Notes: generated by a model not told the origin, from the sequence alone. A stretch of 64,000 nucleotides of DNA from Thermodesulfobacteriota bacterium (GCA_049320885.1 JBMORA010000028.1:1-64000); one strand, 5' to 3'; shown: positions 28,047-64,000, counted from the stretch's first letter. A program made the numbers and translations.

Positions 28047-30575
28047 TTACAGCATCCCCCGGATGGTCGCAGCCGCCCTTTCCGCCGAGGGCAGCATGGC
28101 GTTTTCCAGATTCTTGGCGTAGGGAATGGGACAGTCCGGCGCGCTGATCTTGACCGGCGCGGTTTTCAAGAGGCTGAATCCCGCCAGGGCCACCCGGGAG
28201 ATGACCTCGGAGCCGATGCTGTTGCTGAAATGGGCTTCCTCCAAGACGGCCAAGCGCCCGGTACGGGCCACGGACCCAAGAATGCTTTCGGTATCCAGGG
28301 GATAGAGGGTCACCAGATCGATGATTTCGGCCTCCACTCCTTCCCGTTCCAGGATCCCGGCCACGCTTTTGGCAATGCCCACTCCCAGGAGGTAGGTGAC
28401 GATGGTGACATCCCGCCCCGGCCGGACGGTCCGGGCCTTGCCGATGGGCAGGGTGTATTCCCCGGCGGGCGCTTTTCCGGATTCGGCGTACAGGAGCTTA
28501 TGCTCGAAGAACAGCACCGGGTTGTCCGAACGGATGGCCGATGCCAGCAACCCTTTGGCGGTGAAGGCGTCACTCGGCGCAACCACCATCAAACCGGGAA
28601 TGCCGCAAAAGAATTTTTCCATGGACTGGGAATGCTGGGCCGCCATGCCGATGCCGCTGCCCAGGGGGGTCCGAATCACCAGGGGAACCGACACCTGCCC
28701 GCCGGTCATGTAGCGCAATTTGGCCGCCTGATTGACGATGGGATCCATGCAGCAGGTCAAAAAATCGGCGAAGAGGATTTCCGCCACCGGCCGCATTCCG
28801 GTCATGGCCGCGCCCACGGCGCCGCCCACGAAAGCGTTCTCCGATATGGGGGTATCGATGATCCGGCCGGTTCCGAAACGATCCACCAGGCCTTCGGTGA
28901 CATTGAAATACCCTCCTAGGGTCACGTCCTCGCCCCACAGGAAAACGCGCTCATCCCGATCCATTTCCTGGGCCAGGGCCATATTGATGGCCTGGGATAC
29001 CGAAAATTCCGCCGCGTCGTCCGGCACCTGGAAACTCCCGGAAAAGAGGGCGCGGTCCTCGGGACTGTAAATGTCCCGGCTCAGTTCCCCGGGTTGGGGT
29101 TCGGGGGCCTGTTCGGCGAACCGGACCGCCGCCGCGATGGTTTCCCTGACGGTTCCGCGGAGCCCCTCCAGTTCCTCCGGTGACATCCCGCCGCCCACCA
29201 GCTCCTGCTCCAGGCGCCGGACGGGATCTGCTTTGGCATGCAGGGCCTTCTCTTCCGGACCGCGGTATTGCTGCTGATCCCCTTCCATATGGCCGTGCCA
29301 GCGGTAGGTCATCAGCTCCACCAGCCGCGGCCGACCGTCGGCCCGCATCCCGTCGATGATCCGGCCCACTTCCGCGAATACGGTGCGGGCATCGTTGCCG
29401 TCGAACCGGTGGGACGCGACGCCATAGGCCTCGGCCCTGCGAAACACCTCGGTGACCGCCGAGTGCCGCTCGATGGCGGTGAATTCCCCGTAGCGGTTGT
29501 TTTCCACCACCACCAGCACCGGCAGGTTGAATACGGCGATCATGTTCATGGCTTCGTGGAACATGCCTTGATTGACGGACCCGTCGCCGGCGATGACCAC
29601 TGAAATATCGTCGCTCTTGCGATAATGCTTGATGGAAAAACCGGCCCCCAGGGCCAGAAGGTAACCGGCGCCGACGATCCCGTTGGCCCCCAGCACGCCG
29701 ATCCGGCCGTCGGTGACATGCATGGAGCCGCCCTTGCCCTTGCAAAGGCCCTCGGCCTTGCCGTAAATTTCCGCCATCATCCGCTGGACGTCGGCGCCCT
29801 TGGCGATGATATGCCCGTGCCCGCGATGGGTGGTATTCAGGTAGTCGCTGTCCCGCAACTGCATACAGACTCCGGCGGCCACGGCTTCCTGTCCGATGGA
29901 CAGATGGATGGCCTCGGTGGGCAGACGGCCGGCCTGAAAGGCCTCCGCCAGATGCTGCTCGAAATAGCGGATGGTCAGCATGGCGGTCAGGAGGTCCACG
30001 GGGCCGACGTCTTTTCGCCCCCCCGCCCTTCCCGGACCGGACGCCGGTGTACCATGGCCGGCAAATTCCAGGGGGAATTCCGGAATCCGCTCCGGCTGGA
30101 CAGTTCCGCGTCGTTTGCCGAAAAACCATCCCAAACGTCGTCTGGCCTTGCGTTGCGGCGCCGCCGGCAACAGATCCGCCCTTCCCAGCTCCCGCAGAAT
30201 CCGGGGATAGAGGACAAAAGCCGGTTTCAAGGCCGGAACCAGTTTCAGGGCCTTTTGCACCGAGCCCTTGGCCACGATTTTCCGCGTGGCCAGCGCCAGG
30301 GGCACATTCAGTTGCTCCATCCAGAACAGATGGGCGGTTTCGGAGGAGAGAATCATTTCCACGTCGAAATCCCGGTTGTCCGGGTCGGCCCAGAAGTAAC
30401 GCGGCGTTTCGCCGCTGATATCGATCATCAGGGCCGTGGGGAAATCCGTATACCGGAACTTGGCGATGAGGCGGGAGCCGGAAACCGACCGAACGATTTC
30501 CGGGGTGGCGAAAATGGCCTCCCACAGAGCCGACAGCACCCGGACCAATTCTTCCTGGTTGTGAAACGCACCCAT
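28047..30575 (-). CDS. SCP2-like domain fused to ThDP-dependent E1 alpha and beta (acetoin/2-oxoacid dehydrogenase family)
   Basis: N-terminal FW...LNVPLALA.RKI..KG (SCP2-like); HLSIGQEA, THRGHGH, GDG...NN, TYRWHGH; DTPISE, AAQHSQS. Confidence 0.88.
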   Translation of the reverse strand: MGAFHNQEELVRVLSALWEAIFATPEIVRSVSGSRLIAKFRYTDFPTALMIDISGETPRYFWADPDNRDFDVEMILSSETAHLFWMEQLNVPLALATRKIVAKGSVQKALKLVPALKPAFVLYPRILRELGRADLLPAAPQRKARRRLGWFFGKRRGTVQPERIPEFPLEFAGHGTPASGPGRAGGRKDVGPVDLLTAMLTIRYFEQHLAEAFQAGRLPTEAIHLSIGQEAVAAGVCMQLRDSDYLNTTHRGHGHIIAKGADVQRMMAEIYGKAEGLCKGKGGSMHVTDGRIGVLGANGIVGAGYLLALGAGFSIKHYRKSDDISVVIAGDGSVNQGMFHEAMNMIAVFNLPVLVVVENNRYGEFTAIERHSAVTEVFRRAEAYGVASHRFDGNDARTVFAEVGRIIDGMRADGRPRLVELMTYRWHGHMEGDQQQYRGPEEKALHAKADPVRRLEQELVGGGMSPEELEGLRGTVRETIAAAVRFAEQAPEPQPGELSRDIYSPEDRALFSGSFQVPDDAAEFSVSQAINMALAQEMDRDERVFLWGEDVTLGGYFNVTEGLVDRFGTGRIIDTPISENAFVGGAVGAAMTGMRPVAEILFADFLTCCMDPIVNQAAKLRYMTGGQVSVPLVIRTPLGSGIGMAAQHSQSMEKFFCGIPGLMVVAPSDAFTAKGLLASAIRSDNPVLFFEHKLLYAESGKAPAGEYTLPIGKARTVRPGRDVTIVTYLLGVGIAKSVAGILEREGVEAEIIDLVTLYPLDTESILGSVARTGRLAVLEEAHFSNSIGSEVISRVALAGFSLLKTAPVKISAPDCPIPYAKNLENAMLPSAERAAATIRGML

Positions 30576-35412: not shown

Positions 35413-36477
35413 TTACCCGCGGGCAATCGGTTTGTCGCTGCGTTGTCGGTGCAATTCCGCCACCCGCCGATCCATGATGGCCCGCCAGAGCGGGGGAACG
35501 GCCGCCAGCAGCACCATGCCGGCGTAGCCCGTGGGCAGCTGGGGGCTTTCCTCGAAATGCCGCAAGGCCTGATATCGTCTTCCCGGTTTGTAATGATGGT
35601 CGGAATGCCGCTGGAGATTAAACAGAAACCGATTGGTCAGCCAGTTGCTGGAATTCCAGGAATGCAGCGGCGTCACGGGCTCATGGCGGTTTCCCGGGAT
35701 TTCCCTTCTAAAAAGACCGTAATGTTCCACGTAATTCACTATTTCCAAGAGTGAAATCGCGATGAAAGCCTGTAAAATAAAAAATATCAACCCTTTCCAT
35801 CCGAACATGATCGCGACGAACAAGATCAAAACAGATTGCAGCAGAAGACCGGAGGCGACCCGATTCCGAAGATTCCAGGGGCCCAGGCCGTTCCGGCGAA
35901 GCCGCTCGGCTTCGAATCGAAAGGCGCTGCCGAACCCCCCGAAAACCGTTCGCGGCCAGAAGGCATAAAAAGATTCTCCGAAACGGGCGGTCGCCGGGTC
36001 GGCCTGGGTGGCCACACGGCGATGATGTCCCACCACATGCTCCAATCCCCAGTGCATGTAACAAACCGTGCACAGCATGATTTTGGAAAGGAGCGGCTCC
36101 ATTTTTTCATTGACCCGGTGGGCCAGTTCATGGGCGACATTGATCCCCATCACGCCCGAGGAAACACCGACGGAAGCCGCCATCCCGCAATATTCCAGAA
36201 CCGAAAAACCGCCGCCGGAAGCCAGGCGGCAGGCCCAGAACACCAGCAGGACCTGCAGCGGGGCGCATATCCAGGTGACTATCCGATATCCTACCCTTGT
36301 TTCCAGTTGCCGGAGTTCATCCCCACTCGGGTTGTTCGTTTCCCTTCCGATGATGACATCCAGGATCGGAACCACGCCGAACACCATCAGCGGTGTCAAA
36401 AAAGTATACCAGCCACCCAGGACGGTTCCGGCAATAACACTTATCGGCACAAGATAAACTAATGTAAACGACCACAT
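35413..36477 (-). CDS. alkB: Alkane 1-monooxygenase (membrane di-iron hydroxylase)
   Basis: His boxes AHELAH, EHVVGHH, NYVEHYG, LQRHSDHH; DPATARFGES; PQLPTGY; RBS GGGGAG. Confidence 0.92.
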   Translation of the reverse strand: MWSFTLVYLVPISVIAGTVLGGWYTFLTPLMVFGVVPILDVIIGRETNNPSGDELRQLETRVGYRIVTWICAPLQVLLVFWACRLASGGGFSVLEYCGMAASVGVSSGVMGINVAHELAHRVNEKMEPLLSKIMLCTVCYMHWGLEHVVGHHRRVATQADPATARFGESFYAFWPRTVFGGFGSAFRFEAERLRRNGLGPWNLRNRVASGLLLQSVLILFVAIMFGWKGLIFFILQAFIAISLLEIVNYVEHYGLFRREIPGNRHEPVTPLHSWNSSNWLTNRFLFNLQRHSDHHYKPGRRYQALRHFEESPQLPTGYAGMVLLAAVPPLWRAIMDRRVAELHRQRSDKPIARG

Positions 36478-53870: not shown

Positions 53871-54722
53871 TTGGATTTACGCGAAGCCTTCAAGCATGCG
53901 ATCGCCATTAATCAGAGCAACTGGAACCGTTTCGCCGGGTTGTTCCAATGGATCAACCGGCTGGCGCCCTATTCCCAATCACCCCTGGCGGGTCCCTTTC
54001 TGAAACACATCCTGAAATTCGACCGACCCGACAGAAATTTCACCCAGGGGTTCACCCTCGCCATCAACCGGTCCATAAAAAACAACTGCCGCAACGCCAT
54101 CCTTCCCGTCCAGATCGTCCGCAACACGCTGCTCCATTCTTCCTACCGGGCCATCATGCATAAATGCCTCTGCCGTGACGGCGGCCGCTGTTCCCGTTAC
54201 CCGTTGGATTTCGGATGCATTTTCATCGGCGAAGGATCACGGGTGACGGAAGCAAGGGGGATTTCCCGATCGGTGAGCGTGACGGAGGCTTTGGCGCACC
54301 TGGAACAAGCCGCGGATCTGGGACTGGTCTGTCAGTGCATCTGGGTGGAAGCCGAGGAGTTCGTCTGGGGCATCCGGCGGAAAAACCTGCACCGTTTCCT
54401 GGAAATCTGTTTTTGCTGTCCCTGCTGTTGCATCGCCCTGAAAAATCTCAAACACGTGGGACCCGACATCCGCGAGCGGTTTCGTTCCGTCGGTTGGCAG
54501 GCGAGGTCGACAATCCCCTGCAGCGGCTGCGGGAAATGCGCGAAAACCTGCCCCGTGGGCGCCATCCGCATTCAAGCCAACGCCGCAGTGGTTTCCGGAC
54601 AATGCATCGGTTGCGGCATCTGCCTGCATCGTTGTCCCGAAAAGGCGCTTGAACTGACCCCCACCGGGGAAACAAAATCCCGGATTCATGATTATTTCCG
54701 AGGATTTTCACTGGATGTATGA
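53871..54722 (+). CDS. 4Fe-4S dicluster domain protein
   Basis: CLCR....C, ICFCCPCCC, CSGCGKCAKTCP, CIGCGICLHRCP; TTG start after AAGGA. Confidence 0.85.
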   Translation: MDLREAFKHAIAINQSNWNRFAGLFQWINRLAPYSQSPLAGPFLKHILKFDRPDRNFTQGFTLAINRSIKNNCRNAILPVQIVRNTLLHSSYRAIMHKCLCRDGGRCSRYPLDFGCIFIGEGSRVTEARGISRSVSVTEALAHLEQAADLGLVCQCIWVEAEEFVWGIRRKNLHRFLEICFCCPCCCIALKNLKHVGPDIRERFRSVGWQARSTIPCSGCGKCAKTCPVGAIRIQANAAVVSGQCIGCGICLHRCPEKALELTPTGETKSRIHDYFRGFSLDV

Positions 54723-54864: not shown

Positions 54865-54922
54865 TTGACAGATAATATATACTTTCTATATATGCTTTTT
54901 ATATATTCATCGTATATAAAAA
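54865..54922 (+). promoter_or_regulatory. Sigma70 promoter overlapped by two palindromic operators (probable PadR sites)
   Basis: TTGACA 54865-54870; ATATA-N7-TATAT at 54875-54891 and 54901-54917, the second within a perfect 10-bp inverted repeat (54896-54922). Confidence 0.7.
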
Positions 54923-54943: not shown

Positions 54944-55495
54944 ATGGCCATCAAATATTCCATTCTCGGATTGCTGCATTACAAGGACATGCACGGATAC
55001 CGGATCAAGGAGCATATCGAGCGCAATTTCGGCCATATGTGGTCCATCAATTACGGTCAGATCTATCCCAACCTGAAAAAGCTCTGCGATGACGGACTCA
55101 TCCGGATGCATGAGAAGACCCGGAACGGCGACAAAGGCGGCCCGCCCCGCAAGCTCTACTCCATCACCGAAAAAGGCCGGGAGGAGTTCGTCCGCTGGCT
55201 GCATGATTCTCCGGAACGGACCATGATCATGCGCGACCCGTTTCTGATGCGCTTTGTCTTTTTCGGTTTCGGGGACCGGGACAAGGCCCTGGAGCTGATC
55301 GACGAGCAGATCCGGGAATACGAGCTTCAACTGAAGCGGCGCGGGCTGAACAAGACACGCTGGTCGGAATTGGGCGACTACGTCCGCATGGTGGCCGACC
55401 TGGGCATCACGTTCAATGAAATGTACCTGGACTGGCTGAAGCGGGCGCGGGACGAGATCGCCCAAAAGCCACCAAGTCAAAGGGGTAACCCATGA
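54944..55495 (+). CDS. PadR family transcriptional regulator
   Basis: ILGLL....HGY.IK, GQIYP.L..L, RKLYSITEKG. Confidence 0.92.
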   Translation: MAIKYSILGLLHYKDMHGYRIKEHIERNFGHMWSINYGQIYPNLKKLCDDGLIRMHEKTRNGDKGGPPRKLYSITEKGREEFVRWLHDSPERTMIMRDPFLMRFVFFGFGDRDKALELIDEQIREYELQLKRRGLNKTRWSELGDYVRMVADLGITFNEMYLDWLKRARDEIAQKPPSQRGNP

Positions 55496-56487
55496 AAACC
55501 TCAGACATTTGCCTGGTAACCGGCGCTGCCGGATTCATGGGCAGTCATGTGGTGGAAGAGCTGGTCCGGACCGGCGCCCGGGTGATCGCCACCAGCCGTC
55601 CGCGCAGGGACACCTCCTTTTTCGACGCCCTGGGGGTCCGGTACATTCCGGCGGACCTGACCCGTCCCGATACGTTGATCCCGCTGTTTGCGGAAAAGGT
55701 GGAGCGCGTTTTTCATCTGGGCGCCGTCTGCAATTTTTCCACCCCCTATGCGAAGCTGCACCCGACCAACGTCGCCGGCGTCGATTGCCTTACGGATCTG
55801 GCCCGACAGCATGCGGTGGGTTGCTTTGTGCATGTCACCTCCACCAGCGTATACGGCTATTATCAGGGGACACCCTTCACGGAGGAATCGCCGCGAAGCC
55901 CCATGGACGATTACGGCCGCAGCAAGCGTGACGGTGAGGACATCGTCTTCCGCAAAATGCAACTCGGTCTGCCAGCAATCGTGGTCAGACCCTGCACGGT
56001 CTATGGCCCGCGATGCAATGACGGGGCCGGCAAGGTATTCTCGCGGCCCGGAGCCATCAAGGCGATACCCGGCAGCGGGAATCAAAAACTCTCCAACATC
56101 CGTGCCGAGGATGTGGCTGCCGCCGTGGTGTATCTCTCGGAAAGGGAAGACGCCAGGGGTCGGGTCTACAACCTGGCCGACGACTCCCATCCCACCGTCG
56201 GCGAAGCGCTGCGGACGGCCGCGCTCACATTCGGAACTCCGGTGCCTTCCCTGCATTTGCCTTTGTGGCTGGTCCGTTTCGTGGCCCGCCTGGAGGGCTT
56301 GGTCTGCCGATTCCGCAACCGCATACCGGAGCTGGAATACGATGCCGCCAGATATCTCGCGGCGGATTATATCGTGGACAACAGCCGCTTGAAGCAGACC
56401 GGATTCCGTTTCCGTTATCCGGACTTCGCAGCCTCCATGGAGCAATTGGGCGCCGCCTTCCGGTCGGATCGTCCATCGAAACCGTGA
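55492..56487 (+). CDS. Extended SDR (NAD-dependent epimerase/dehydratase, 3beta-HSD-like)
   Basis: TGAAGFMG, VFHLGA, STSVYG, YGRSK, RP..VYGP. Confidence 0.88.
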   Translation: MKTSDICLVTGAAGFMGSHVVEELVRTGARVIATSRPRRDTSFFDALGVRYIPADLTRPDTLIPLFAEKVERVFHLGAVCNFSTPYAKLHPTNVAGVDCLTDLARQHAVGCFVHVTSTSVYGYYQGTPFTEESPRSPMDDYGRSKRDGEDIVFRKMQLGLPAIVVRPCTVYGPRCNDGAGKVFSRPGAIKAIPGSGNQKLSNIRAEDVAAAVVYLSEREDARGRVYNLADDSHPTVGEALRTAALTFGTPVPSLHLPLWLVRFVARLEGLVCRFRNRIPELEYDAARYLAADYIVDNSRLKQTGFRFRYPDFAASMEQLGAAFRSDRPSKP

Positions 56488-56501
56488 ATAAAGGGGGGAA
56501 T

Positions 56502-57332
56502 ATGGGCAACGTGATCGTCATTACAGGACTGGCGGAAGGAATGGGGCGGGAAGTGGCCGTGATGTTGGCCCGGTCTGGAGACACCATCGCCGGATTCGAC
56601 ATGAATTCCGCGGGTATCGCCGCATTGGAGCAGGAGCTGAAATCCCATGGGAATCCGTTTTACCTGGAAACCATGAACATAACGGACCGCGGTGGTATTC
56701 AGCGGTTCCGGGATACGGTGCTGGATCGATTCGGCCAGGTGGACACCGTCGTTTCCAATGTGGGGATCGGTTTTTTCGGCCCCTTTGAGGAAACTGATCT
56801 CGAAAAGGCCATGAAATGCCTGGAAATCAACGTGATCGGAGCCGCGGCCATATTTCAGGCCTTTCTTCCGTCCATGCGCCTGAAGCGTCGCGGCAAACTG
56901 GTGGCCATGTCCTCCCTGGTGGGCCGGATCCCCTTTCCCTTCGAGTCCATTTATACGGCCTCCAAATTCGCCCTCCAGGGAATGATGGAGGCCATCCAAT
57001 ACGAGGTCAAACCTTTCGGTATTGACGTGGCCTTGGTGGAACCGGCCCAGGTTTCCACCAATTTCGCGGCCAAAATCCATCAGCTGCCGCCGGAAGGAAG
57101 CCCCTATCGCGATCGGGCGCGGCGTTTCATCGAGAGAGACAATGCCCTCATCAAGACCGCCACCACGCCCCGGACGGCGGCGGAAAAAATTGTCCGGGTG
57201 ATCCGCGACCATCGTCCCCGGCTGCATAACCAGGTGGATTTCATGAGTACCGTTTTTCTGGCCCTGAACCGGATTCTTCCCAAATTCGCGCGGGACATGA
57301 TTCTCGTGAACTACATGGATATTCGTGCATAA
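56502..57332 (+). CDS. Classical short-chain dehydrogenase/reductase
   Basis: TGLAEGMG, SNVG, SS, YTASK; RBS GGGGGG. Confidence 0.88.
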   Translation: MGNVIVITGLAEGMGREVAVMLARSGDTIAGFDMNSAGIAALEQELKSHGNPFYLETMNITDRGGIQRFRDTVLDRFGQVDTVVSNVGIGFFGPFEETDLEKAMKCLEINVIGAAAIFQAFLPSMRLKRRGKLVAMSSLVGRIPFPFESIYTASKFALQGMMEAIQYEVKPFGIDVALVEPAQVSTNFAAKIHQLPPEGSPYRDRARRFIERDNALIKTATTPRTAAEKIVRVIRDHRPRLHNQVDFMSTVFLALNRILPKFARDMILVNYMDIRA

Positions 57333-57342
57333 AGGAGGCCCC

Positions 57343-59724
57343 ATGGAAACAGCCCGGGCATTGTCGACGATTCCCGCCGAAACACGGGTGGGCCGGCTCC
57401 GGCGCCGCATTATCGAGGCTCCCCAGGAAATCTGCGTGGAGCGGGCCCGGTATCTCACCCAGGCCATGGCGTGGCACTGGGACAAGGATCCCCTAACCCG
57501 CATGAGCCTGGCCCTCGAACATATCCTTTCCCGGATACGCGTCATTATCCGGCCGGATGAACTGATCGTGGGCTGCCGGACCAGCAAGCTCAAGGGCGCC
57601 CCCTTGTTTCCGGAGAACAAGATCCGCTGGATCGAAGGCGACGTGGAGAATTTCGACCGGCGGGTGGTCCAGCGCGCCTTGATCACCGAGGAGGAGAAAG
57701 CCGAAGTTCTGCGGGACATCGTGCCCTTCTGGAAAGGCCGGTCCGTCGAGGAGCATTTCGAATCGCTGCTGCCGGCGGACGTGGCCGAGGACATGGACAA
57801 ATATATCTTCACCATGATGCTGGAGATCACTTACGGCATCGGACATTTCACCATGGACCATCCCCGGGTGCTCCGGGAAGGGCTGTCCGGAGTCATCCAC
57901 CAATCCCGGGAGGCTTTCGCGGCGCTGTCCCCTTCCGAGCAATCATCGGAAAAAGGCCGCTTCCACCTGGCGGTGATGCGCAGCCTGAAGGCCGCCATTC
58001 ATTTCGCGGGACGCCATGCGGATCATGCTGAAACATTGGCCGCCGCCGAACCGGACCCTGTGCGCAGGCAGGAACTCCAAATGATCGCCGCGGTCTGCCG
58101 GCAGGTTCCCGAACATCCGGCCCGGACCTTTCACGAGGCGGTCCAGGGGCTCTATTTCATCCATCTCATCGCCCAGATCGAGTCCGGCGGCAACTCGGTT
58201 TCGTTGGGCCGCATCGACCAGATTCTCCAGCCCTACTATAAAAAGGATTTGGAAGCAGGCCGCATCACGCCGGATCAGGCCCGGGAACTCATGGCCTTGC
58301 TGTTCCTCAAAACCAACGAAATCTGGAATGTTCTGGAGGAAGCCTACATTCCGGGAGGGGAAGGAACGGAAGGCAAAACCACCCAGAACGTCACCGTGGG
58401 CGGCGTGGATGCCGCAGGCAGGGACGCCACCAACGAACTCAGCTTCATCGGCCTGGACGCCTATTCCCAAATCCGTACGGTCCAACCCAATTTCGGCGTG
58501 CGCATCAGCGCCGGGACGCCGGAGTTGTTTTTCATGAAAGCCGCGGCCTGCGCCAAAGACGGCGTATTGCTGCATTTTTTCAACGACGACGCCATCGTGC
58601 CCTCCCTGATCCTGGCGGGACATTCGGAAGCGGACGCCCGGGATTACGGCGTCGTGGGCTGCCTGGAGCCCAACGCCCAAGGTAAATCCTTCGGTTCCAC
58701 GTTCGCGGCCCAATTCAATCTCATCAAATGCGTGGAGTTGGCCCTGAGCAACGGCATCGACAACATTTTCGGGTATCGCACCGGACTCGAAACCGGCGCG
58801 CCGGAAACATTCCGCTCCTTTGAGGACGTCTTTCGGGCTTACGACCGTCAGGTTTCCCATTTCATCGGCCAGCTCACCAGGGGCATGGAATGTCTGGACC
58901 GCGCCATAGCGGAACGGCTGCCCTCGCCCTTCGCTTCCGCCATGATCCAGGGAACCCTTGAAACAAGCCGCGACCTCACCCGGGGAGGAGCGCGCTACAA
59001 TTCCACCGGTATCCAGTTCATGGGTTTTTCCAACACCGCGGACAGTTTGTATGCCGTGAAAACAGCCGTCTATGATGAAAAATCCGTCCGCCTGGAGGAA
59101 TTGGCCGCCTGGCTGGGCGACGACTGGACGGACGCGGAAGACAAAAGAACGTATTTTCAGAACAAAATCCCCAAGTACGGCAACGACTGCGATCCCGTGG
59201 ACCGCATGGCCGCAATGGTGGCCAACCATTTTTGCGATCTGCTGCAACGCCACCGGAATTTCCGCGGCGGTCATTACTGGCCGGGGATTTTCTCCGTGGG
59301 GTTCCACGTATCCATGGGGGCTTTCACGGGCGCGACGCCGGACGGGCGGTATGCCGGAGAAGTCCTGGGCAACGGGGTCACCCCGAGCAACAGCGCGGCG
59401 CTCAAAGGCCCCACCGCCATCATGAACTCCGTCACCCGACTTCCCCTCCGGCGGGTGTATAACGGCATGAACCTGAACATGCGCTTCCAGGGAAAACAGG
59501 TCAAGGCGGCCAACCTCATGAACCTGATCCGCGCTTATTTTGAAAAAGGCGGATTTCAGGTGCAGTTCAACATGGTGGACAGCGCCACCTTGCGCAAGGC
59601 CCAGCAGCATCCGGAACAGTATCGCGATCTCATCGTGCGCATCAGCGGCTATTCCGGCATTTTCATCAATCTGAGTGATATCGCCCAGGACGAGATCATC
59701 AGCAGAACCGAACAGACCCTGTAG
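57343..59724 (+). CDS. Glycyl radical enzyme (PFL2/eliminase-like, substrate unknown)
   Basis: DELIVG, GRIDQ, VGCLEP Cys loop, PKYGND, ATPDGR, QFN, RISGYS Gly loop; RBS AAGGAGG. Confidence 0.93.
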   Translation: METARALSTIPAETRVGRLRRRIIEAPQEICVERARYLTQAMAWHWDKDPLTRMSLALEHILSRIRVIIRPDELIVGCRTSKLKGAPLFPENKIRWIEGDVENFDRRVVQRALITEEEKAEVLRDIVPFWKGRSVEEHFESLLPADVAEDMDKYIFTMMLEITYGIGHFTMDHPRVLREGLSGVIHQSREAFAALSPSEQSSEKGRFHLAVMRSLKAAIHFAGRHADHAETLAAAEPDPVRRQELQMIAAVCRQVPEHPARTFHEAVQGLYFIHLIAQIESGGNSVSLGRIDQILQPYYKKDLEAGRITPDQARELMALLFLKTNEIWNVLEEAYIPGGEGTEGKTTQNVTVGGVDAAGRDATNELSFIGLDAYSQIRTVQPNFGVRISAGTPELFFMKAAACAKDGVLLHFFNDDAIVPSLILAGHSEADARDYGVVGCLEPNAQGKSFGSTFAAQFNLIKCVELALSNGIDNIFGYRTGLETGAPETFRSFEDVFRAYDRQVSHFIGQLTRGMECLDRAIAERLPSPFASAMIQGTLETSRDLTRGGARYNSTGIQFMGFSNTADSLYAVKTAVYDEKSVRLEELAAWLGDDWTDAEDKRTYFQNKIPKYGNDCDPVDRMAAMVANHFCDLLQRHRNFRGGHYWPGIFSVGFHVSMGAFTGATPDGRYAGEVLGNGVTPSNSAALKGPTAIMNSVTRLPLRRVYNGMNLNMRFQGKQVKAANLMNLIRAYFEKGGFQVQFNMVDSATLRKAQQHPEQYRDLIVRISGYSGIFINLSDIAQDEIISRTEQTL

Positions 59725-59740
59725 GATACGGAGGAATTCA

Positions 59741-60676
59741 ATGAGCAAGGTCATGAGCACCAAGGAGGCGGTTTCCCGGTTTATCGGCAACGGCGCCTTC
59801 CTGTATATCGGCGGCTACGTATGCCGCCCGCCTTTTGCCGTCATCCATGAGATCATCCGTCAGGGGATCAGGGACCTGACCATCACCCGCAGCAATGCCG
59901 CGGATGATTTCGATCTGCTCATCGGCGCGGGCGCGGTGAGGCGTTTCATCGGCACCTTTCTGTCCCTGGGACTGTACGGGCTCGGAAGGTGTTATCGCCG
60001 CGCCATGGAAAAAGGCATCCCCCACCCTCTTGAAGTCGAGGAATACACCAATCTTTCCCTGCCCATGATGCTCATGGCCGGCGCTCTCGGCATGCCCTTC
60101 GTGCCGGTGAAAGACATGCTGGGGTCCGATTTGCTCAACGTGCGGTCATTCCTGGGCGACAATAAATACAAGCTGATCTCCTCTCCCTTTGACGGCAGTC
60201 CGGTGCTGCTGGTGCCGGCGCTGAAACCGGACGTGGCCGTCATTCATGTCCAGCAGGCGGACGAGGACGGCAACGCCCAGATGTGGGGCATCGGCGGGGA
60301 CTGCCAGCAGGGCGCCAACGCGGCCGGAAAGGTGATCGTGAGCTGCGAGCGCATCGTATCCCGCGAGACCATCGGCAAGGATCCGTCACGGACCATCGTG
60401 CCGGCCATGAAAGTCGCCGCCGTGGTGGAAGAGCCCTTCGGAGCCCATCCCGGTTACACGCCGGGTTTCTATGATGTGGATTTTTCATTCGGATACGTCT
60501 ATCAGCAGGCCTCCAACACCGTGGAAGGCGTCAACGCTTTTTTGCAGGAATGGGTCCACGGCGTTCCGGACCGGACGGCCTATGTCCAGCATTACATCCA
60601 GAAATTCGGCTTCGGCGCTTTTCGGAAACTCCAGGCTGACTTCGATTACGCCTTTCCGGTGAGTTATGCCTATTGA
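59741..60676 (+). CDS. Family I CoA-transferase subunit A (glutaconate CoA-transferase-like)
   Basis: RPP.A..HEIIRQG, AGALG.PF.P, PAL.PDVA.IHVQ.AD..GN, PFGAHP. Confidence 0.88.
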   Translation: MSKVMSTKEAVSRFIGNGAFLYIGGYVCRPPFAVIHEIIRQGIRDLTITRSNAADDFDLLIGAGAVRRFIGTFLSLGLYGLGRCYRRAMEKGIPHPLEVEEYTNLSLPMMLMAGALGMPFVPVKDMLGSDLLNVRSFLGDNKYKLISSPFDGSPVLLVPALKPDVAVIHVQQADEDGNAQMWGIGGDCQQGANAAGKVIVSCERIVSRETIGKDPSRTIVPAMKVAAVVEEPFGAHPGYTPGFYDVDFSFGYVYQQASNTVEGVNAFLQEWVHGVPDRTAYVQHYIQKFGFGAFRKLQADFDYAFPVSYAY

Positions 60677-60736
60677 TGTGTTGACGCGGCAACACCTTTT
60701 GAAAATGCACCCATTGACCAACAGGGAGACGAATCT

Positions 60737-61537
60737 ATGACAACCCATCCGGCCGGTTACATCAAACCGGAACTCATGGCTTGTTGCGGCGCCCGGGAAA
60801 TCCAGGATCACGACGTGGTCATCGTCGGCACCGGCTTTCCCACCATGAGCGCCAATATCGCCAAACACCTGCATGCCGTCCATGCGGTCATGATGCAGGA
60901 ATCCGGCGTCATCGATGCAAGACCCAGGCGCCCCGCCCTTTCCGTGGGCGATCCCTGCCTGAATCCGGGAGCCGCCATGATCGGCGGCCTGGTCGACATC
61001 ATGGGCATGTGCCTCCAGGCCGGCATGGTGGACGTGGGATTTTTGTCCGGCAGTCAGGTGGACCAATTCGGCAATATCAACACCACCGCCATCGGCAGGT
61101 ACAACCAGCCCAAAAGCCGCCTTCCCGGCAGCGGCGGCGCCAACCCCATCGGCTCCCTGGCGAAACGCACCCTCATCATCACCCTGCACGACAAGCGCCG
61201 GCTGGCAAACAAAGTGGATTTCATCACCACCCCGGGCTATATCGACGGTCCCGGTGCCCGGGAAAAATGGGGCCTGCCCAAGGGGACCGGACCCCATTGC
61301 ATCATCACCAACAAGGCGATTTTGCGTTTCGACCCTTCCACCGGCACGGCTTACCTGGCTTCCTACCATCCCGGATGCTCGGTGAAGGAAATTCAGGATA
61401 ATACCCCCTGGGATCTGAAGGTGGCCGATGATGTTCATGAGACCGAACCGCCCCGGACGGAGGAACTGAGAGTGATCCGGGAAGTGCTCGACCCCCATCG
61501 CATGATCCGGATTTATGAACAGCGCGGATACGTATAA
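60737..61537 (+). CDS. Family I CoA-transferase subunit B
   Basis: VGTGFP, QESG (catalytic Glu), QVD.FGNINTT, RLPGSGGA, VDFIT.PG. Confidence 0.88.
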   Translation: MTTHPAGYIKPELMACCGAREIQDHDVVIVGTGFPTMSANIAKHLHAVHAVMMQESGVIDARPRRPALSVGDPCLNPGAAMIGGLVDIMGMCLQAGMVDVGFLSGSQVDQFGNINTTAIGRYNQPKSRLPGSGGANPIGSLAKRTLIITLHDKRRLANKVDFITTPGYIDGPGAREKWGLPKGTGPHCIITNKAILRFDPSTGTAYLASYHPGCSVKEIQDNTPWDLKVADDVHETEPPRTEELRVIREVLDPHRMIRIYEQRGYV

Positions 61538-61573
61538 ACGGATACATATAAACAGAATATCGCGGAGGAACGC

Positions 61574-62941
61574 ATGGAACATACCCGCAACCTGGCAACA
61601 TTTTGCGCGGAACTTACCTTTTCGAGCCTGCCGGCCGATGTCGTCCACAAGGCCAAACTGTGCCTGCTGGATTATGTGGCCAACATTTACGGCTCCCTGG
61701 AATTGTCGGCGGTGAGTCAGGTGATCGACCACGTCCGCTCCCTGGGGGACGGCAACGCCGCCACCGCCCTCGGTTGCGGCTTCAAGACCAACCTGCTGCA
61801 AGCGGCGTTCATCAACGGCACCCTGGCCGAAGCCATCGAGGCCCAGGACGGGGTCCGGTTCGGCGGGAATCATCCGGGAGCGGCGGTGATCCCCGCCGCC
61901 ATGGGCATCGCCGAGCAGCTGCATCTGGACGGCAAGGCCATGATCGGCGCCATCGTGGCGGGTTATGAAGCCGCCAACCGGCCGGCGGCCGCCATGCACC
62001 CCTGGCACACCCTCTCCGGATTTCTTCCCACCGGCACCTGCGGGGCCTTCGGCGCGGCGGCGGCGGCCGGATATTTATATGGATTCGGCCCGGAAAAAAT
62101 GCTGCATGCCATCGGCAACGCCGGCTATCTGCTGCCCTTGTCCATGGCGGAACATCTGATGGCCGGCTGCACCATCAAAATCGTTCAAGGCGGTCAGGCG
62201 GCCTCCGCCGGTATCCTGGCCGCCGGTCTGGCCGGCAACGGCCTGACCGGCTCGACCCAGGTATTGGAGGGATCGGCCCTGAAAGGCGGATTCACCCAGA
62301 TCACCACCCGGGCCGAACCCAAGGTTGAAAAAATCAGCGACAACCTCGGAAAGTCCTTCTCCATCATGGACGTGTATTTCAAACCCTATACCGCCTGCCG
62401 CCATACCCACGGCGCAGCCCAGGCTGTCCTGGGGCTTTTGGAGGAAACGCCCATCGCTGCGGACATGGTGGAGCGGATCGATGTATATACTTACGGCATC
62501 GCCCAGCTGGCGGTGGGCAAAAGCGTGGACGCAGGCAGCTCTTTCGTTTCCGCCCAGTTCTCCATTCCCTATGTGGTGGCCGCCTGTCTTCTGGACCGCG
62601 CCCTGGGTCCCGGGCAGCTTACCGAAAAGCGCATGACGGACCCGGCGATCATGGACCTTTCGAAAACCGTCCGGGTCCATACGGACGACGAGCTGAACCG
62701 GCGCTACCCGGATGTTACCGCCTCGCGGGTGGCCGTGACGATGAAAGACGGCCGCTGTTGTGAACGGCAGATCGACATCCCCAAGGGCGATCCGCGGGAT
62801 CCCATGACGGCCGGCGATATTGCGGAAAAGGTCCGTTTTTTCGCCGGGAATCGAAATCCGGATACGATCGATGAAGTCATCCGGATGATTTTGAAACTGG
62901 AAACCGTGACGGATATGGCCGACATCGCCACCCGGATTTAA
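61574..62941 (+). CDS. MmgE/PrpD family protein
   Basis: AAF.NG, HP, GYE, GF.PTGTCG.FGAA, FKPY..C..TH, AQFS.PY, PKGDP. Confidence 0.9.
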   Translation: MEHTRNLATFCAELTFSSLPADVVHKAKLCLLDYVANIYGSLELSAVSQVIDHVRSLGDGNAATALGCGFKTNLLQAAFINGTLAEAIEAQDGVRFGGNHPGAAVIPAAMGIAEQLHLDGKAMIGAIVAGYEAANRPAAAMHPWHTLSGFLPTGTCGAFGAAAAAGYLYGFGPEKMLHAIGNAGYLLPLSMAEHLMAGCTIKIVQGGQAASAGILAAGLAGNGLTGSTQVLEGSALKGGFTQITTRAEPKVEKISDNLGKSFSIMDVYFKPYTACRHTHGAAQAVLGLLEETPIAADMVERIDVYTYGIAQLAVGKSVDAGSSFVSAQFSIPYVVAACLLDRALGPGQLTEKRMTDPAIMDLSKTVRVHTDDELNRRYPDVTASRVAVTMKDGRCCERQIDIPKGDPRDPMTAGDIAEKVRFFAGNRNPDTIDEVIRMILKLETVTDMADIATRI

Positions 62942-63041
62942 CGGCGTCTTCTTCCCTCCGCCGGATTCGCACAGAGGCATACCGGACGAAGGCACATCGG
63001 ACGGCAAAAGCATTGCTTAATTATCAAGGTAAGGAGGATTT

Positions 63042-64000
63042 GTGGATTTTAGCCTGAGCAAAGAGCAGACCATGCTGATCCAATCCCTGCGGGACATGGG
63101 GAAACGGGAAAAATTCGATGAACTGGCCGCCCGGATCGACGCCACCGCGGAATTTCCCCATCACCTACTAGGAAAATACGCGGACCTGGGCCTTCTGGGC
63201 ATGGTGTTGCCCACCGAATTCGGCGGCGAAGGGGAAACCTCCCTCACCGCCATCCTGGCCATCGAGGAACTGGCCAAATTCAGCCCCATGATCGCGGCAC
63301 CGGTGTTCGAATCCAATGTGGGGCCGGTGCGGGTGATCGCCATGTTCGGCACGGACGAGCAGAAACGCCGGATTCTTCCGGGTGTCTGCAAGGGCGAACA
63401 CAGCGTTTCGGTCTGCATGACCGAGCCGGAATCGGGTTCGGACTTGACCGCCCTGTCCACCCATTTGAAAGAGGACGGGGATGGATATGTGCTGAACGGC
63501 AGAAAGGTGTTTATCACCGGCGGCGGCGAGGCCAGTCATTATATGGTCTACGCCCGCTTCGGGGACATCTCCGGCTACAAAGGCATCGGAGCGGTGATCG
63601 TGGAGAAGGGCGCACCCGGCTTCACCTTCGGCAAGCAGGAAACTTATATGGGGTTGCGCGGCATGCCGTCCTGCGATCTGTTTTTCGACGACGTCCGGAT
63701 ACCCCGGGAAAATGTGGTGATCCGCAGCGGTGAATTCGGCAATCTGATGCTGACCTTCGATATCGAACGATGCGGCAATGCGGCCATGTGCCTGGGCGTT
63801 GCCGGCGGCGCCATGGAGGCCGCCAGAAAATACGCCCTGGAAAGGACCGCGTTCAACCGCCCGATCTGCGAATTCCAGGATATCCAGTTCATGCTGGCGG
63901 ACATGGCCATGAAGCTCGATGCGGCCCGTCTCCTGGTCTATCGCGCGGCCAGCAACGCCGGCCAGGGTCTCCCGTCCGTCTACGAAGCTTCGATGGCCAA
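63042..64000 (+). CDS. Acyl-CoA dehydrogenase (truncated by window end)
   Basis: GTG start after AAGGAGG; MDFSLSKEQ, P.EFGG, MTEPESGSDL, LNGRKVFIT, MGLRG, R.AF.RPI..FQ.IQF.LADM. Confidence 0.9.
   Translation, partial: MDFSLSKEQTMLIQSLRDMGKREKFDELAARIDATAEFPHHLLGKYADLGLLGMVLPTEFGGEGETSLTAILAIEELAKFSPMIAAPVFESNVGPVRVIAMFGTDEQKRRILPGVCKGEHSVSVCMTEPESGSDLTALSTHLKEDGDGYVLNGRKVFITGGGEASHYMVYARFGDISGYKGIGAVIVEKGAPGFTFGKQETYMGLRGMPSCDLFFDDVRIPRENVVIRSGEFGNLMLTFDIERCGNAAMCLGVAGGAMEAARKYALERTAFNRPICEFQDIQFMLADMAMKLDAARLLVYRAASNAGQGLPSVYEASMA

Follow-up and report, generated by a model that had tools for sequence, protein, structure and literature searches.

We analysed a stretch of 64,000 nucleotides (the window) from a Thermodesulfobacteriota bacterium (GCA_049320885.1, JBMORA010000028.1:1-64000), which corresponds to positions 1-64000 of contig C28 of the source genome (G000, 98% complete). 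Eight co-oriented plus-strand genes span 54944-64000, with gaps of -4, 14, 10, 16, 60, 36 and 100 nt, and form an operon around an uncharacterised glycyl radical enzyme (GRE). In order, these encode a PadR-family regulator (54944-55495, 183 aa, PF03551 and PF10400, i.e., PadR and Vir_act_alpha_C), an extended short-chain dehydrogenase/reductase (SDR) of the Pfam Epimerase type (55492-56487, 331 aa, motifs TGAAGFMG and YGRSK), a classical SDR of the adh_short type (56502-57332, 276 aa, motif YTASK), the GRE (57343-59724, 793 aa, PFL-like PF02901 and Gly_radical PF01228), the GctA-like alpha subunit (59741-60676, 311 aa) and GctB-like beta subunit (60737-61537, 266 aa) of a class I CoA-transferase (PF01144, CoA_trans, in each), an MmgE/PrpD-family protein with a remodelled site (PrpD; 61574-62941, 455 aa, PF03972 and PF19305) and an acyl-CoA dehydrogenase (ACAD; 63042-64000 in the window, 386 aa). 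The operon runs past the window edge on contig C28, where the ACAD gene ends at 64202 and is followed on the same strand by genes for a 145-aa protein with the fold of sterol carrier protein 2 (SCP2; C28:64277-64714), a predicted accessory subunit of the GRE, and a 475-aa aldehyde dehydrogenase (ALDH; C28:64732-66159), which is replaced by an aldehyde:ferredoxin oxidoreductase (AOR) in other loci. The GRE starts at ATG 57343, behind AAAGGAGG, rather than at GTG 57325, and its relatives are also 793 aa long; the 10-nt gap is measured from this corrected start. The first-pass annotation, made from the sequence of the window, had described a tight, co-oriented gene run, and Pfam confirms every family that it named. 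The SCP2-fold gene, which lies outside the sequence available to that annotation, is the operon's most distinctive member. A 4Fe-4S gene upstream (53871-54722, +) was rejected as a part of the operon, as it is present in only 1 of 80 loci.

Gene neighbourhoods were compared in the best 80 of 158 genome loci, all from metagenome-assembled genomes (MAGs) of Thermodesulfobacteriota, Spirochaetota, Chloroflexota, Actinomycetota, SAR324 and other groups. Across the 44 well-covered loci (at least 2.6 kb upstream and at least 6.5 kb downstream), the classical SDR occurs in 44, the ACAD in 43, the extended SDR and the SCP2-fold protein in 42 each, and PadR, GctA, GctB and PrpD in 41 each; all eight GRE partners are present in 38. 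This co-occurrence is far beyond chance, and conservation of the neighbours across homologues, a point on which the proposal of a new pathway had been left to depend, is evident. The operon is real, strongly conserved and catabolic, and is built around an uncharacterised GRE clade. Median identities of its proteins across loci are 62-78% (77% for GctA). PrpD and the CoA-transferase occur in the identical 41 of 44 loci. Both are missing from the Chloroflexota loci, where the SCP2 gene directly follows the GRE gene and an AMP-forming ligase is mostly present; PrpD was not found in those 4 Chloroflexota genomes, which are incomplete MAGs. The extended SDR is dispensable in some loci. Occasional inserts among the 80 loci encode a major facilitator superfamily transporter (9), DUF362 (7), a paraoxonase-like esterase (6) and an iron alcohol dehydrogenase (5). 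In line with what had been reported for the window, no bacterial microcompartment (BMC) gene, small Fe-S subunit or pyrroline-5-carboxylate reductase is among the recurring neighbour clusters of the 80 loci (open reading frames below 80 aa were not called). In a sample of 301 genomes from the phylum, 24 carry the GRE family itself, G000 being one of them. An apparent fusion of the two SDRs in locus L007 was not used, as the linker resembles a read-through intergenic region and the GRE there is also split. A thiamine diphosphate (ThDP) enzyme in locus L036, with BbmA as its best match, then acetolactate synthases and other ThDP families, was uninformative.

The GRE belongs to the PFL-like GRE superfamily and to no characterised class. 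It scores 635 bits with PF02901 and 97 bits with PF01228, and the best Foldseek match of its AlphaFold2 (AF2) monomer model (pLDDT 82.7, pTM 0.88) is 1r8w (TM 0.92, 36% identity). The closest solved structures are those of glycerol dehydratase (GD) and propanediol dehydratase (PD), at 34-37% identity. A homologue search at E 1e-50 returned 1433 proteins among 8000 scored candidates; clade members are 63-82% identical, with 119 matches listed besides the query at 67-82%. Among the 50%-identity representatives of 1.84 billion proteins the nearest shares 71% identity and the one after it 43%, a drop that marks a discrete, isolated clade. Clustering with a characterised GRE was looked for with NCBIfam, the representatives and FastTree, and none was found. 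The tree (83 rows, SH-like support, references named by annotation and context, without rows for HpfG, HpsG, IslA, HplG, benzylsuccinate synthase (BSS) and PFL2) has a branch that sets the ten family rows apart from the group with the GD, PD, HypD, CutC, YbiW and PflD references. No NCBIfam equivalog cut-off is reached (those for HypD, CutC, HpfG, HpsG, PflD and the indoleacetate (IAD) and hydroxyphenylacetate (HPAD) decarboxylases included), and the subfamily model TIGR01774 alone passes (697 against 678). HypD, CutC, HpfG, HpsG, IslA/IseG, IAD and HPAD are likewise PFL-like GREs with the CxE motif, and against those six for which a model exists the protein scores 287-554 bits (cut-offs 1000-1150); the HypD and CutC site residues differ from those found here. 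When 60 of 150 GRE representatives were searched with NCBIfam at E 1e-245, none was labelled as a characterised class. Pyruvate formate-lyase is ruled out by the Cys loop, VGCLEP with a single Cys rather than adjacent Cys-Cys, and the score with TIGR01255 is 160 (cut-off 994). The GRE is not BssA-like either, as had also been noted, with 25% identity to BSS and 24% to methylalkylsuccinate synthase (MASS). The accessible text of a 2026 GRE review (PMC13450708) describes no such enzyme, and we found no description of this clade, or of a GRE with MmgE/PrpD or with SCP2, in literature searches that mostly covered non-subscription papers.

The nearest relative outside the clade in the tree, P0121 (43% identity), has the Cys loop AGGVEL without the catalytic Cys and the Gly loop RFGGYP, and is possibly an inactive or non-thiyl GRE paralogue. 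Another relative, P0164, is an activase-GRE fusion of 1095 aa. GRE and activase genes also occur on plasmids of the aerobes Acinetobacter towneri and Moraxella osloensis (L089:5956-9331; hits H18 and H28), and a further GRE match lies on a Novosphingobium plasmid; the A. towneri plasmid GRE groups with the GRE on contig C46 of the source genome (FastTree).

All of the GRE motifs quoted in the first-pass annotation are present: GIGHF (165-169), ESGGNS (280-285), IPGGEGTEGKTT (336-347), GCLEP with its single Cys (439-443), GSTF (451-454) and RISGYS (766-771). The alignment with the GD counterparts (GHV, ESNGHS and GWHD) is as it had stated. C440, E442, H168, G769 and R788 are invariant columns in 40 aligned family rows, and the CxE motif (C440-L-E442) and the equivalent of GD H164 occur in 40/40. 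Relative to the Clostridium butyricum GD, the kept residues are H164 (H168), S282 (S285), C433 (C440), E435 (E442) and G763 (G769), and the changes are H281 to N284, Y339 to T347, W445/H446 to S452/T453, D447 to F454, Y640 to F650, S642 to V652 and N645 to H655; kept and changed positions alike are invariant in the 40 rows. The specificity set of GD and PD (H164, H281, E435, D447 and the Y339/F344 pocket) is thus broken at N284, F454 and T347. Replacement of the aromatic GD pocket residues Y339, F333 and W445 by the small T347, G339 and S452 hints at a larger pocket. In C-O elimination by GD, E435 is the base and H164 the acid, and CxE is common to eliminases and isomerases, with a like Glu in two decarboxylases (PMC13450708, accessible text). 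Since the equivalents of base and acid (E442 and H168) are kept, the active-site residues point, at slightly better than even odds, to cleavage of a C-O bond adjacent to a carbinol as the most likely reaction of this GRE.

The GRE thus resembles GD (C. butyricum, 1r8w/1r9d) and the GRE PDs (5i2a, 9rco) in fold, single-Cys CxE loop, the H164 and S282 equivalents and the Gly loop. It differs from them in the residues listed above, in forming a separate clade, in having neither an activase nor a BMC nearby, and in its SCP2 partner and acyl-CoA module. CxE is shared with Escherichia coli YbiW and PflD and with HplG, and YbiW and PflD keep the H164 equivalent. YbiW cleaves an ether C-O bond (PMC13450708, accessible text) and, in the alignment, has no D447 equivalent. 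However, these enzymes are only 28-33% identical, fall in other clades and act on sugar-phosphate or hydroxyproline substrates.

The SCP2-fold protein is modelled with a pLDDT of 95 (AF2), matches 1ikt, 8af3, 1c44, 4jgx and others with a Foldseek probability of 1.00, and matches Atlas SCP2 clusters at 0.95; it has no Pfam match, PF02036 included. It is 63-90% identical across phyla, and its fold suggests that it binds a hydrophobic ligand. Co-folding with the GRE gave a score of 0.64, compared with 0.00 for the best of three controls (all three 0.00). The mark applied is reached by 116/157 solved complexes and 2/215 mismatched pairs, counts that are rough with the alignments used. At least 83% of the contacts are shared between runs, the partner pLDDT is at least 86, and we know of no solved GRE-SCP2 complex that the model could be recalling. 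Co-folding supports binding, and we consider it probable that the SCP2-fold protein binds the GRE. The modelled interface lies within GRE residues 95-109, 152-154, 333-337, 474-478, 594-596, 656-672 and 778-780; these cover the first part of the lid loop, an NIFGY segment specific to the family, and the last part of the glycyl-radical domain. On the SCP2 side, the interface is more conserved than the rest (0.88 vs 0.79). The partner is accessory rather than essential. In the phylum sample an orthologue is present in 17/23 GRE-positive genomes, and the six without it are one family.

BSS, MASS and HPAD are the only GREs with known small subunits, all of them iron proteins, and BSS-beta and MASS-beta/delta cover the substrate channel and touch the glycyl-radical domain (PMC13450708, accessible text). 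The predicted SCP2 site would be comparable, as it includes lid residues 333-337 and residues 778-780, an equivalence drawn from position rather than superposition. The subunits of BSS, MASS and HPAD are like high-potential iron-sulfur proteins or rubredoxin, unlike the SCP2-fold lipid carrier predicted here. SCP2 is not mentioned in the portion of the review available (PMC13450708), and the SCP2-fold subunit is a probable new element of the system.

The SCP2 gene follows the ACAD gene in 35/46 loci and the GRE gene in 3 only. Locus L001 has an SCP2-ALDH fusion, and an AOR gene comes directly after the SCP2 gene in 16/46 loci; by this fusion and adjacency, an aldehyde-oxidising enzyme would sit at the exit of the GRE. 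The related GRE clades P0124 and P0130 carry fused N-terminal SCP2 domains. Several other arrangements were seen. The SCP2 gene lies right after the GRE gene on the opposite strand in locus L062 (L062:4858-5295), is fused to a hexapeptide-repeat domain in L066 (L066:8470-9459), and is followed by a similar-looking separate gene in L069. In loci L106, L109, L113 and L018 it is followed by a protein of ~270 aa with a weak Fe-S match (two copies in L113), which we take to resemble QueG. Elsewhere in the window (28047-30575, -), an 842-aa fusion joins an N-terminal SCP2-like domain, 27% identical to the SCP2 protein of the operon, to the alpha and beta parts of a 2-oxoacid/acetoin dehydrogenase E1, and is preceded by a DUF2804 gene. 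The source genome also encodes a 983-aa GRE with a long N-terminal extension (C53:45539-48490, -), between a TetR-like gene and its activase, which may be an SCP2-GRE fusion like those of P0124 and P0130. A second SCP2-like gene (33%) lies in C9:210538-219087 (-), beside genes for an ALDH (42%), a zinc alcohol dehydrogenase-like protein, two flavin oxidoreductases and an AMP ligase; this is another hydrophobic-substrate cluster.

The classical SDR belongs to a group like 17beta-hydroxysteroid dehydrogenase 1 (17beta-HSD1) and ketodihydrosphingosine reductase, with 17beta-HSD1 as its best PDB match (E 3e-27). It scores 177 bits with PRK06179 and 148 bits with KdsR (cut-off 400), both below cut-off, and the extended SDR reaches no NCBIfam cut-off. 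Both SDRs resemble hydroxysteroid dehydrogenase groups. The CoA-transferase is of the class I GctAB type, with PF01144 in both subunits and the beta-subunit Glu kept. The best PDB match of the beta subunit is glutaconate CoA-transferase B (E 1.5e-56), and its E55 aligns with the VESG glutamate of 1poi, which we take to be the catalytic residue; the motif is QESG in at least 90% of 59 rows.

The two Pfam domains of PrpD score 174 and 128 bits, against 32. The epimerase residues of Msi/IDS are His88, Glu91, His102, Tyr148, His152, Lys202 and Lys266 (PMC12290011, accessible text). Mapped through 7bra (a Bacillus subtilis homologue, rather than the Pseudomonas aeruginosa protein), PrpD keeps four of these seven (E89, the catalytic H100, K202 and K270) and has E86, T146 and L151 at the others. 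The lack of the epimerase Tyr and of two carboxylate-binding His weakens a succinate-type reading, but does not remove it. A CoA-transferase, a MmgE/PrpD isomerase and an ACAD make up the methylsuccinate module, as in the itaconate/methylsuccinate cluster of Pseudomonas and Cupriavidus (Ict, Msi and Mcd), although the GRE, SDRs and SCP2 are found only here; within the accessible text of that source, the characterised MmgE/PrpD isomerase works on the free acid rather than the CoA ester, and characterised substrates of the family are all C4 1,4-dicarboxylates (PMC12290011). A preference of PrpD for the free acid would explain why it travels with a transferase and not with a ligase.

The ACAD has E242 in DIERCG, lacks the C-terminal Glu (GIAGG contains none), and is orthologous across loci (57-86% identity). 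Thus, it probably handles a special, beta-substituted acyl-CoA. It is 41% identical to an annotated 3-sulfinopropanoyl-CoA desulfinase (Acd), with which it shares the CxTEP and xGG motifs, and 51-52% identical to ACADs of aerobic Rieske clusters. Acd, however, has Gln in place of E242 and Arg in place of a Pro, residues whose roles we presume, and by these differences the protein is probably a true dehydrogenase. Assignment as a desulfinase was rejected (NF042439 267 bits for the part in the window, cut-off 600; E242 present). The nearest ACADs are held by a recurring aerobic cluster in Alphaproteobacteria (loci L090-L093 and L095), which contains varying combinations of genes for Rieske alpha subunits, ACAD, MaoC, thiolase with OB-fold protein, CoA transferase, a 2-oxoacid dehydrogenase complex and ThuA. 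No characterised pathway was tied to these clusters, and an acyl-CoA dehydrogenase is not mentioned in the Variovorax auxin papers.

Upstream of padR, a putative promoter/operator (54865-54918, +) comprises TTGACA at 54865 and TA-rich TATATA-N5-TATATA-like sites at 54876, 54889 and 54902. A TA-rich repeat behind TTGAC is present in 53/67 regions upstream of padR with at most one mismatch, G000 included, compared with a mean of 1.8 and a maximum of 5 in dinucleotide shuffles; spacers of 3 and 7 score too, and that of 5 is tentative. From this pattern the repeat is the likely PadR operator. A matrix scan of the source genome ranked the sites of the operon first, fourth and fifth. Of the 141 sites, none in the top 25 lies ahead of an activase gene or an evident pathway gene, and a sigma-70 scan did not call the promoter at 54865.

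Activation of the GRE may depend on enzymes encoded elsewhere. The source genome encodes six GREs and four activases, the latter on the contigs of 4/5 other GREs, with none on contig C28. An activase gene is present in 7/44 well-covered loci; eight were identified in the 80 loci, two of which are tied to a second GRE, and the operon-linked activases (6/80 loci) are heterogeneous. The four activases of the source genome are 38-45% identical to those of L005, L055, L059 and L061, with no clear orthologue; that of C25 is 56% identical to the activase of L001, and that of C46 49% to the activase of L053. A second GRE gene of the source genome also lacks an adjoining activase (C9:13615-16170, +). 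The same genome has dsrAB-like genes, and elsewhere in the window (35413-36477, -) encodes a fatty-acid-desaturase-family protein that we presume to be like the O2-dependent alkane monooxygenase AlkB.

We predict that the operon serves the anaerobic breakdown of a bulky, lipid-like vicinal diol or beta-hydroxy-ether, in which a C-O eliminase with a lipid-carrier subunit yields an aldehyde that is then oxidised, CoA-activated and dehydrogenated (probability roughly 0.55). PadR would repress the operon, its own gene included, from the TA-rich operator for as long as no inducer is bound, and the two SDRs may set the stereochemistry or oxidation state of the carbinol ahead of the radical step. In the docked model SCP2 lies near the GRE lid and glycyl-radical domain, where it could deliver the greasy substrate and carry the product away. 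Once the GRE has been activated in trans by an activase that it shares with other GREs, a C440 thiyl radical would take H from the carbinol carbon, E442 would deprotonate the carbinol OH and H168 would protonate the neighbouring leaving oxygen, so as to form a hydrophobic aldehyde; the chemistry class assumed for this step is that suggested by the residues compared above. ALDH or AOR could then turn the aldehyde into an acid, and the GctAB-like transferase, or the AMP-forming ligase in Chloroflexota, would by family assignment form the CoA ester. The dedicated ACAD may desaturate a beta-substituted acyl-CoA beyond general beta-oxidation. The weakest step is that of PrpD, which might perform one-base alpha-proton chemistry on the free acid taken up or released by the CoA-transferase.

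This agrees in large part with the first-pass annotation, which proposed a radical eliminase acting on a hydroxylated, fairly hydrophobic carboxylate: the unassigned GRE, an eliminase-type core, a hydrophobic substrate, CoA activation and acyl-CoA dehydrogenation all stand. The two readings part over the carboxylate. An ALDH or AOR travels with the operon (21/44 loci; SCP2-fused in L001), and with this a carboxylate arising after the GRE step fits better than one already present in the substrate. Our leading guess for a single substrate, tentative and one of several, is a 1-O-alkylglycerol-type ether lipid. GRE-SCP2 would dehydrate it to 3-alkoxypropanal, and ALDH/AOR, CoA-transferase and ACAD would convert this to a 3-alkoxyacryloyl enol ether, a scheme that we hold just as tentatively; hydration of the enol ether would free a fatty alcohol. 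Alkylglycerol ethers fit the parts: the SDR is KdsR/17beta-HSD-like, the GRE is GD-like and would have room at C3, SCP2 and ALDH/AOR are at hand, and the ACAD would act on a 3-substituted propionyl-CoA. Other candidates are hydroxy-lactones and diols with a long chain or a polyol side chain. Marker searches weakened routes through ceramides, aromatic rings and steroid rings. A neutral ceramidase is present in the source genome, but in 0/23 other GRE-positive genomes (E 1e-40) and 4/301 of the phylum sample; the benzoyl-CoA ring hydrolase, a ring-cleavage marker, is in 2/24 GRE-positive genomes and not in the source genome, where 3-ketosteroid dehydrogenase (NF005882, one family in one genome) was not found either. 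These results favour an aliphatic, lipid-type substrate.

The alternative nearest to the first-pass annotation is that the GRE acts on a compound with a carboxylate already in place, either a hydroxylated acid or its lactone, that GRE and ALDH yield a 2-substituted succinate, and that PrpD as an epimerase, a stereoselective CoA-transferase and the ACAD then act as in methylsuccinate degradation. The resemblance of the downstream trio to the methylsuccinate module, with the C4 1,4-dicarboxylate substrates of the family in the accessible text of PMC12290011, speaks for it, as do the CoA-transferase nearest to glutaconate CoA-transferase, the lactonase-like paraoxonase insert in 6/80 loci and the MaoC, thiolase/OB-fold and 2-oxoacid dehydrogenase genes adjoining the nearest aerobic ACADs; the invariant K345, together with the glycine-rich loop, could offer a carboxylate-binding site. 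T146 in place of the epimerase Tyr, E86 and L151 in place of the carboxylate-binding His, and the Chloroflexota loci without PrpD and transferase (PrpD being absent from what was assembled of those 4 genomes) make it unlikely, though it is the strongest of these alternatives. Less likely again is that the GRE is a ring-opening isomerase of the YbiW/PflD/HplG type, with a cyclic ether or amine of hydrophobic character, a steroid or an aromatic compound as its substrate. Such isomerases keep CxE (PMC13450708, accessible text), YbiW has the H164 equivalent and likewise lacks that of D447, and both SDRs are hydroxysteroid dehydrogenase-like; against this, YbiW and PflD fall in other clades in the tree, and the ring-cleavage and ketosteroid markers gave the results above. 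Conserved acidic residues near the site (E161, E340 and E343), the 148-bit KdsR match (cut-off 400) and the ceramidase of the source genome would suit a C-N eliminase that acts on a sphingoid base or another lipid amino alcohol and yields an alkanal or alkanol with a 3-hydroxy or 3-oxo group. We think this improbable, as the ceramidase is in none of the 23 other GRE-positive genomes, CutC residues are not kept, and a dedicated ACAD and PrpD would be unexplained. Least probable is a divergent fumarate-adding enzyme in which SCP2 takes the place of the small Fe-S subunits and a succinate adduct is passed to the downstream trio: the trio is a succinate-type module (PMC12290011, accessible text), Archaeoglobus fulgidus PFL2, debated as such an enzyme (PMC13450708, accessible text), is the fourth PDB match, and SCP2 would occupy a site similar in role to that of the beta subunit in BSS/MASS, yet identity to BSS and MASS is low, CxE is present, no small Fe-S gene recurs among the called genes of the 80 loci, and SDRs and ALDH/AOR are unexplained. 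Residues 450-456 contain no Arg; S452/T453 stand at the presumed position of the fumarate-binding Arg of BssA.

A further alternative concerns the architecture alone, namely that SCP2 is a free carrier of aldehyde or acyl-CoA for ALDH/AOR/ACAD and is not bound to the GRE. Its gene position (mostly after ACAD, rarely after GRE), the ALDH fusion, the divergent interface of some SCP2-bearing GREs and the unchanged active site of SCP2-less GREs would suit this. However, the co-folding result with its three null controls, the SCP2-GRE fusions in related clades, the more conserved SCP2 interface side and the erosion of the interface make it the doubtful option. In five GREs encoded by genomes that lack an SCP2 orthologue, consensus identity at 31 interface positions is 0.52, compared with 0.79 +/- 0.04 at conservation-matched positions (0/2000 draws as low; 74 near-complete rows, 21 of them in neither group), with normal identity elsewhere and an essentially unchanged active site.

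Several points weigh against the predicted route and its lipid-carrier subunit. The SCP2-less GREs represent only 2-3 independent losses (three changes on the tree, with a single change also compatible given the starred branches) in incomplete MAGs, and the SCP2-bearing GREs of L010, L075 and L050 diverge at the interface about equally. The SCP2-ALDH fusion is one locus, ALDH/AOR lies inside the compared flank in only 21/44 loci, and the search for an activase specific to the operon found none. GRE isomerases and some decarboxylases have CxE as well, and H281 and D447, which we take to be two of the diol-binding residues of GD, are changed to N284 and F454. In the monomer model, lid loop 329-346 and most of 652-677 have pLDDT <50. 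The side-chain volume sum over 13 pocket positions (1680 cubic angstrom, against 1955 for GD) is a crude measure over hand-picked positions, and that of YbiW is smaller still (1577).

A lipid-carrier subunit, if confirmed, would give GREs a new architecture and account for the access of a greasy substrate to a buried radical site. The regulator with its predicted operator, the carrier with its predicted ligand binding and the candidate activases are handles on the substrate. Under the ether-lipid reading, this would be the first radical enzyme of the superfamily with a lipid-carrier subunit, and would provide a means by which ether lipids are turned over in anoxic sediments and digesters. As the family is common and its operons are near-identical across phyla, the substrate would be an abundant natural compound whose anaerobic fate is undescribed.

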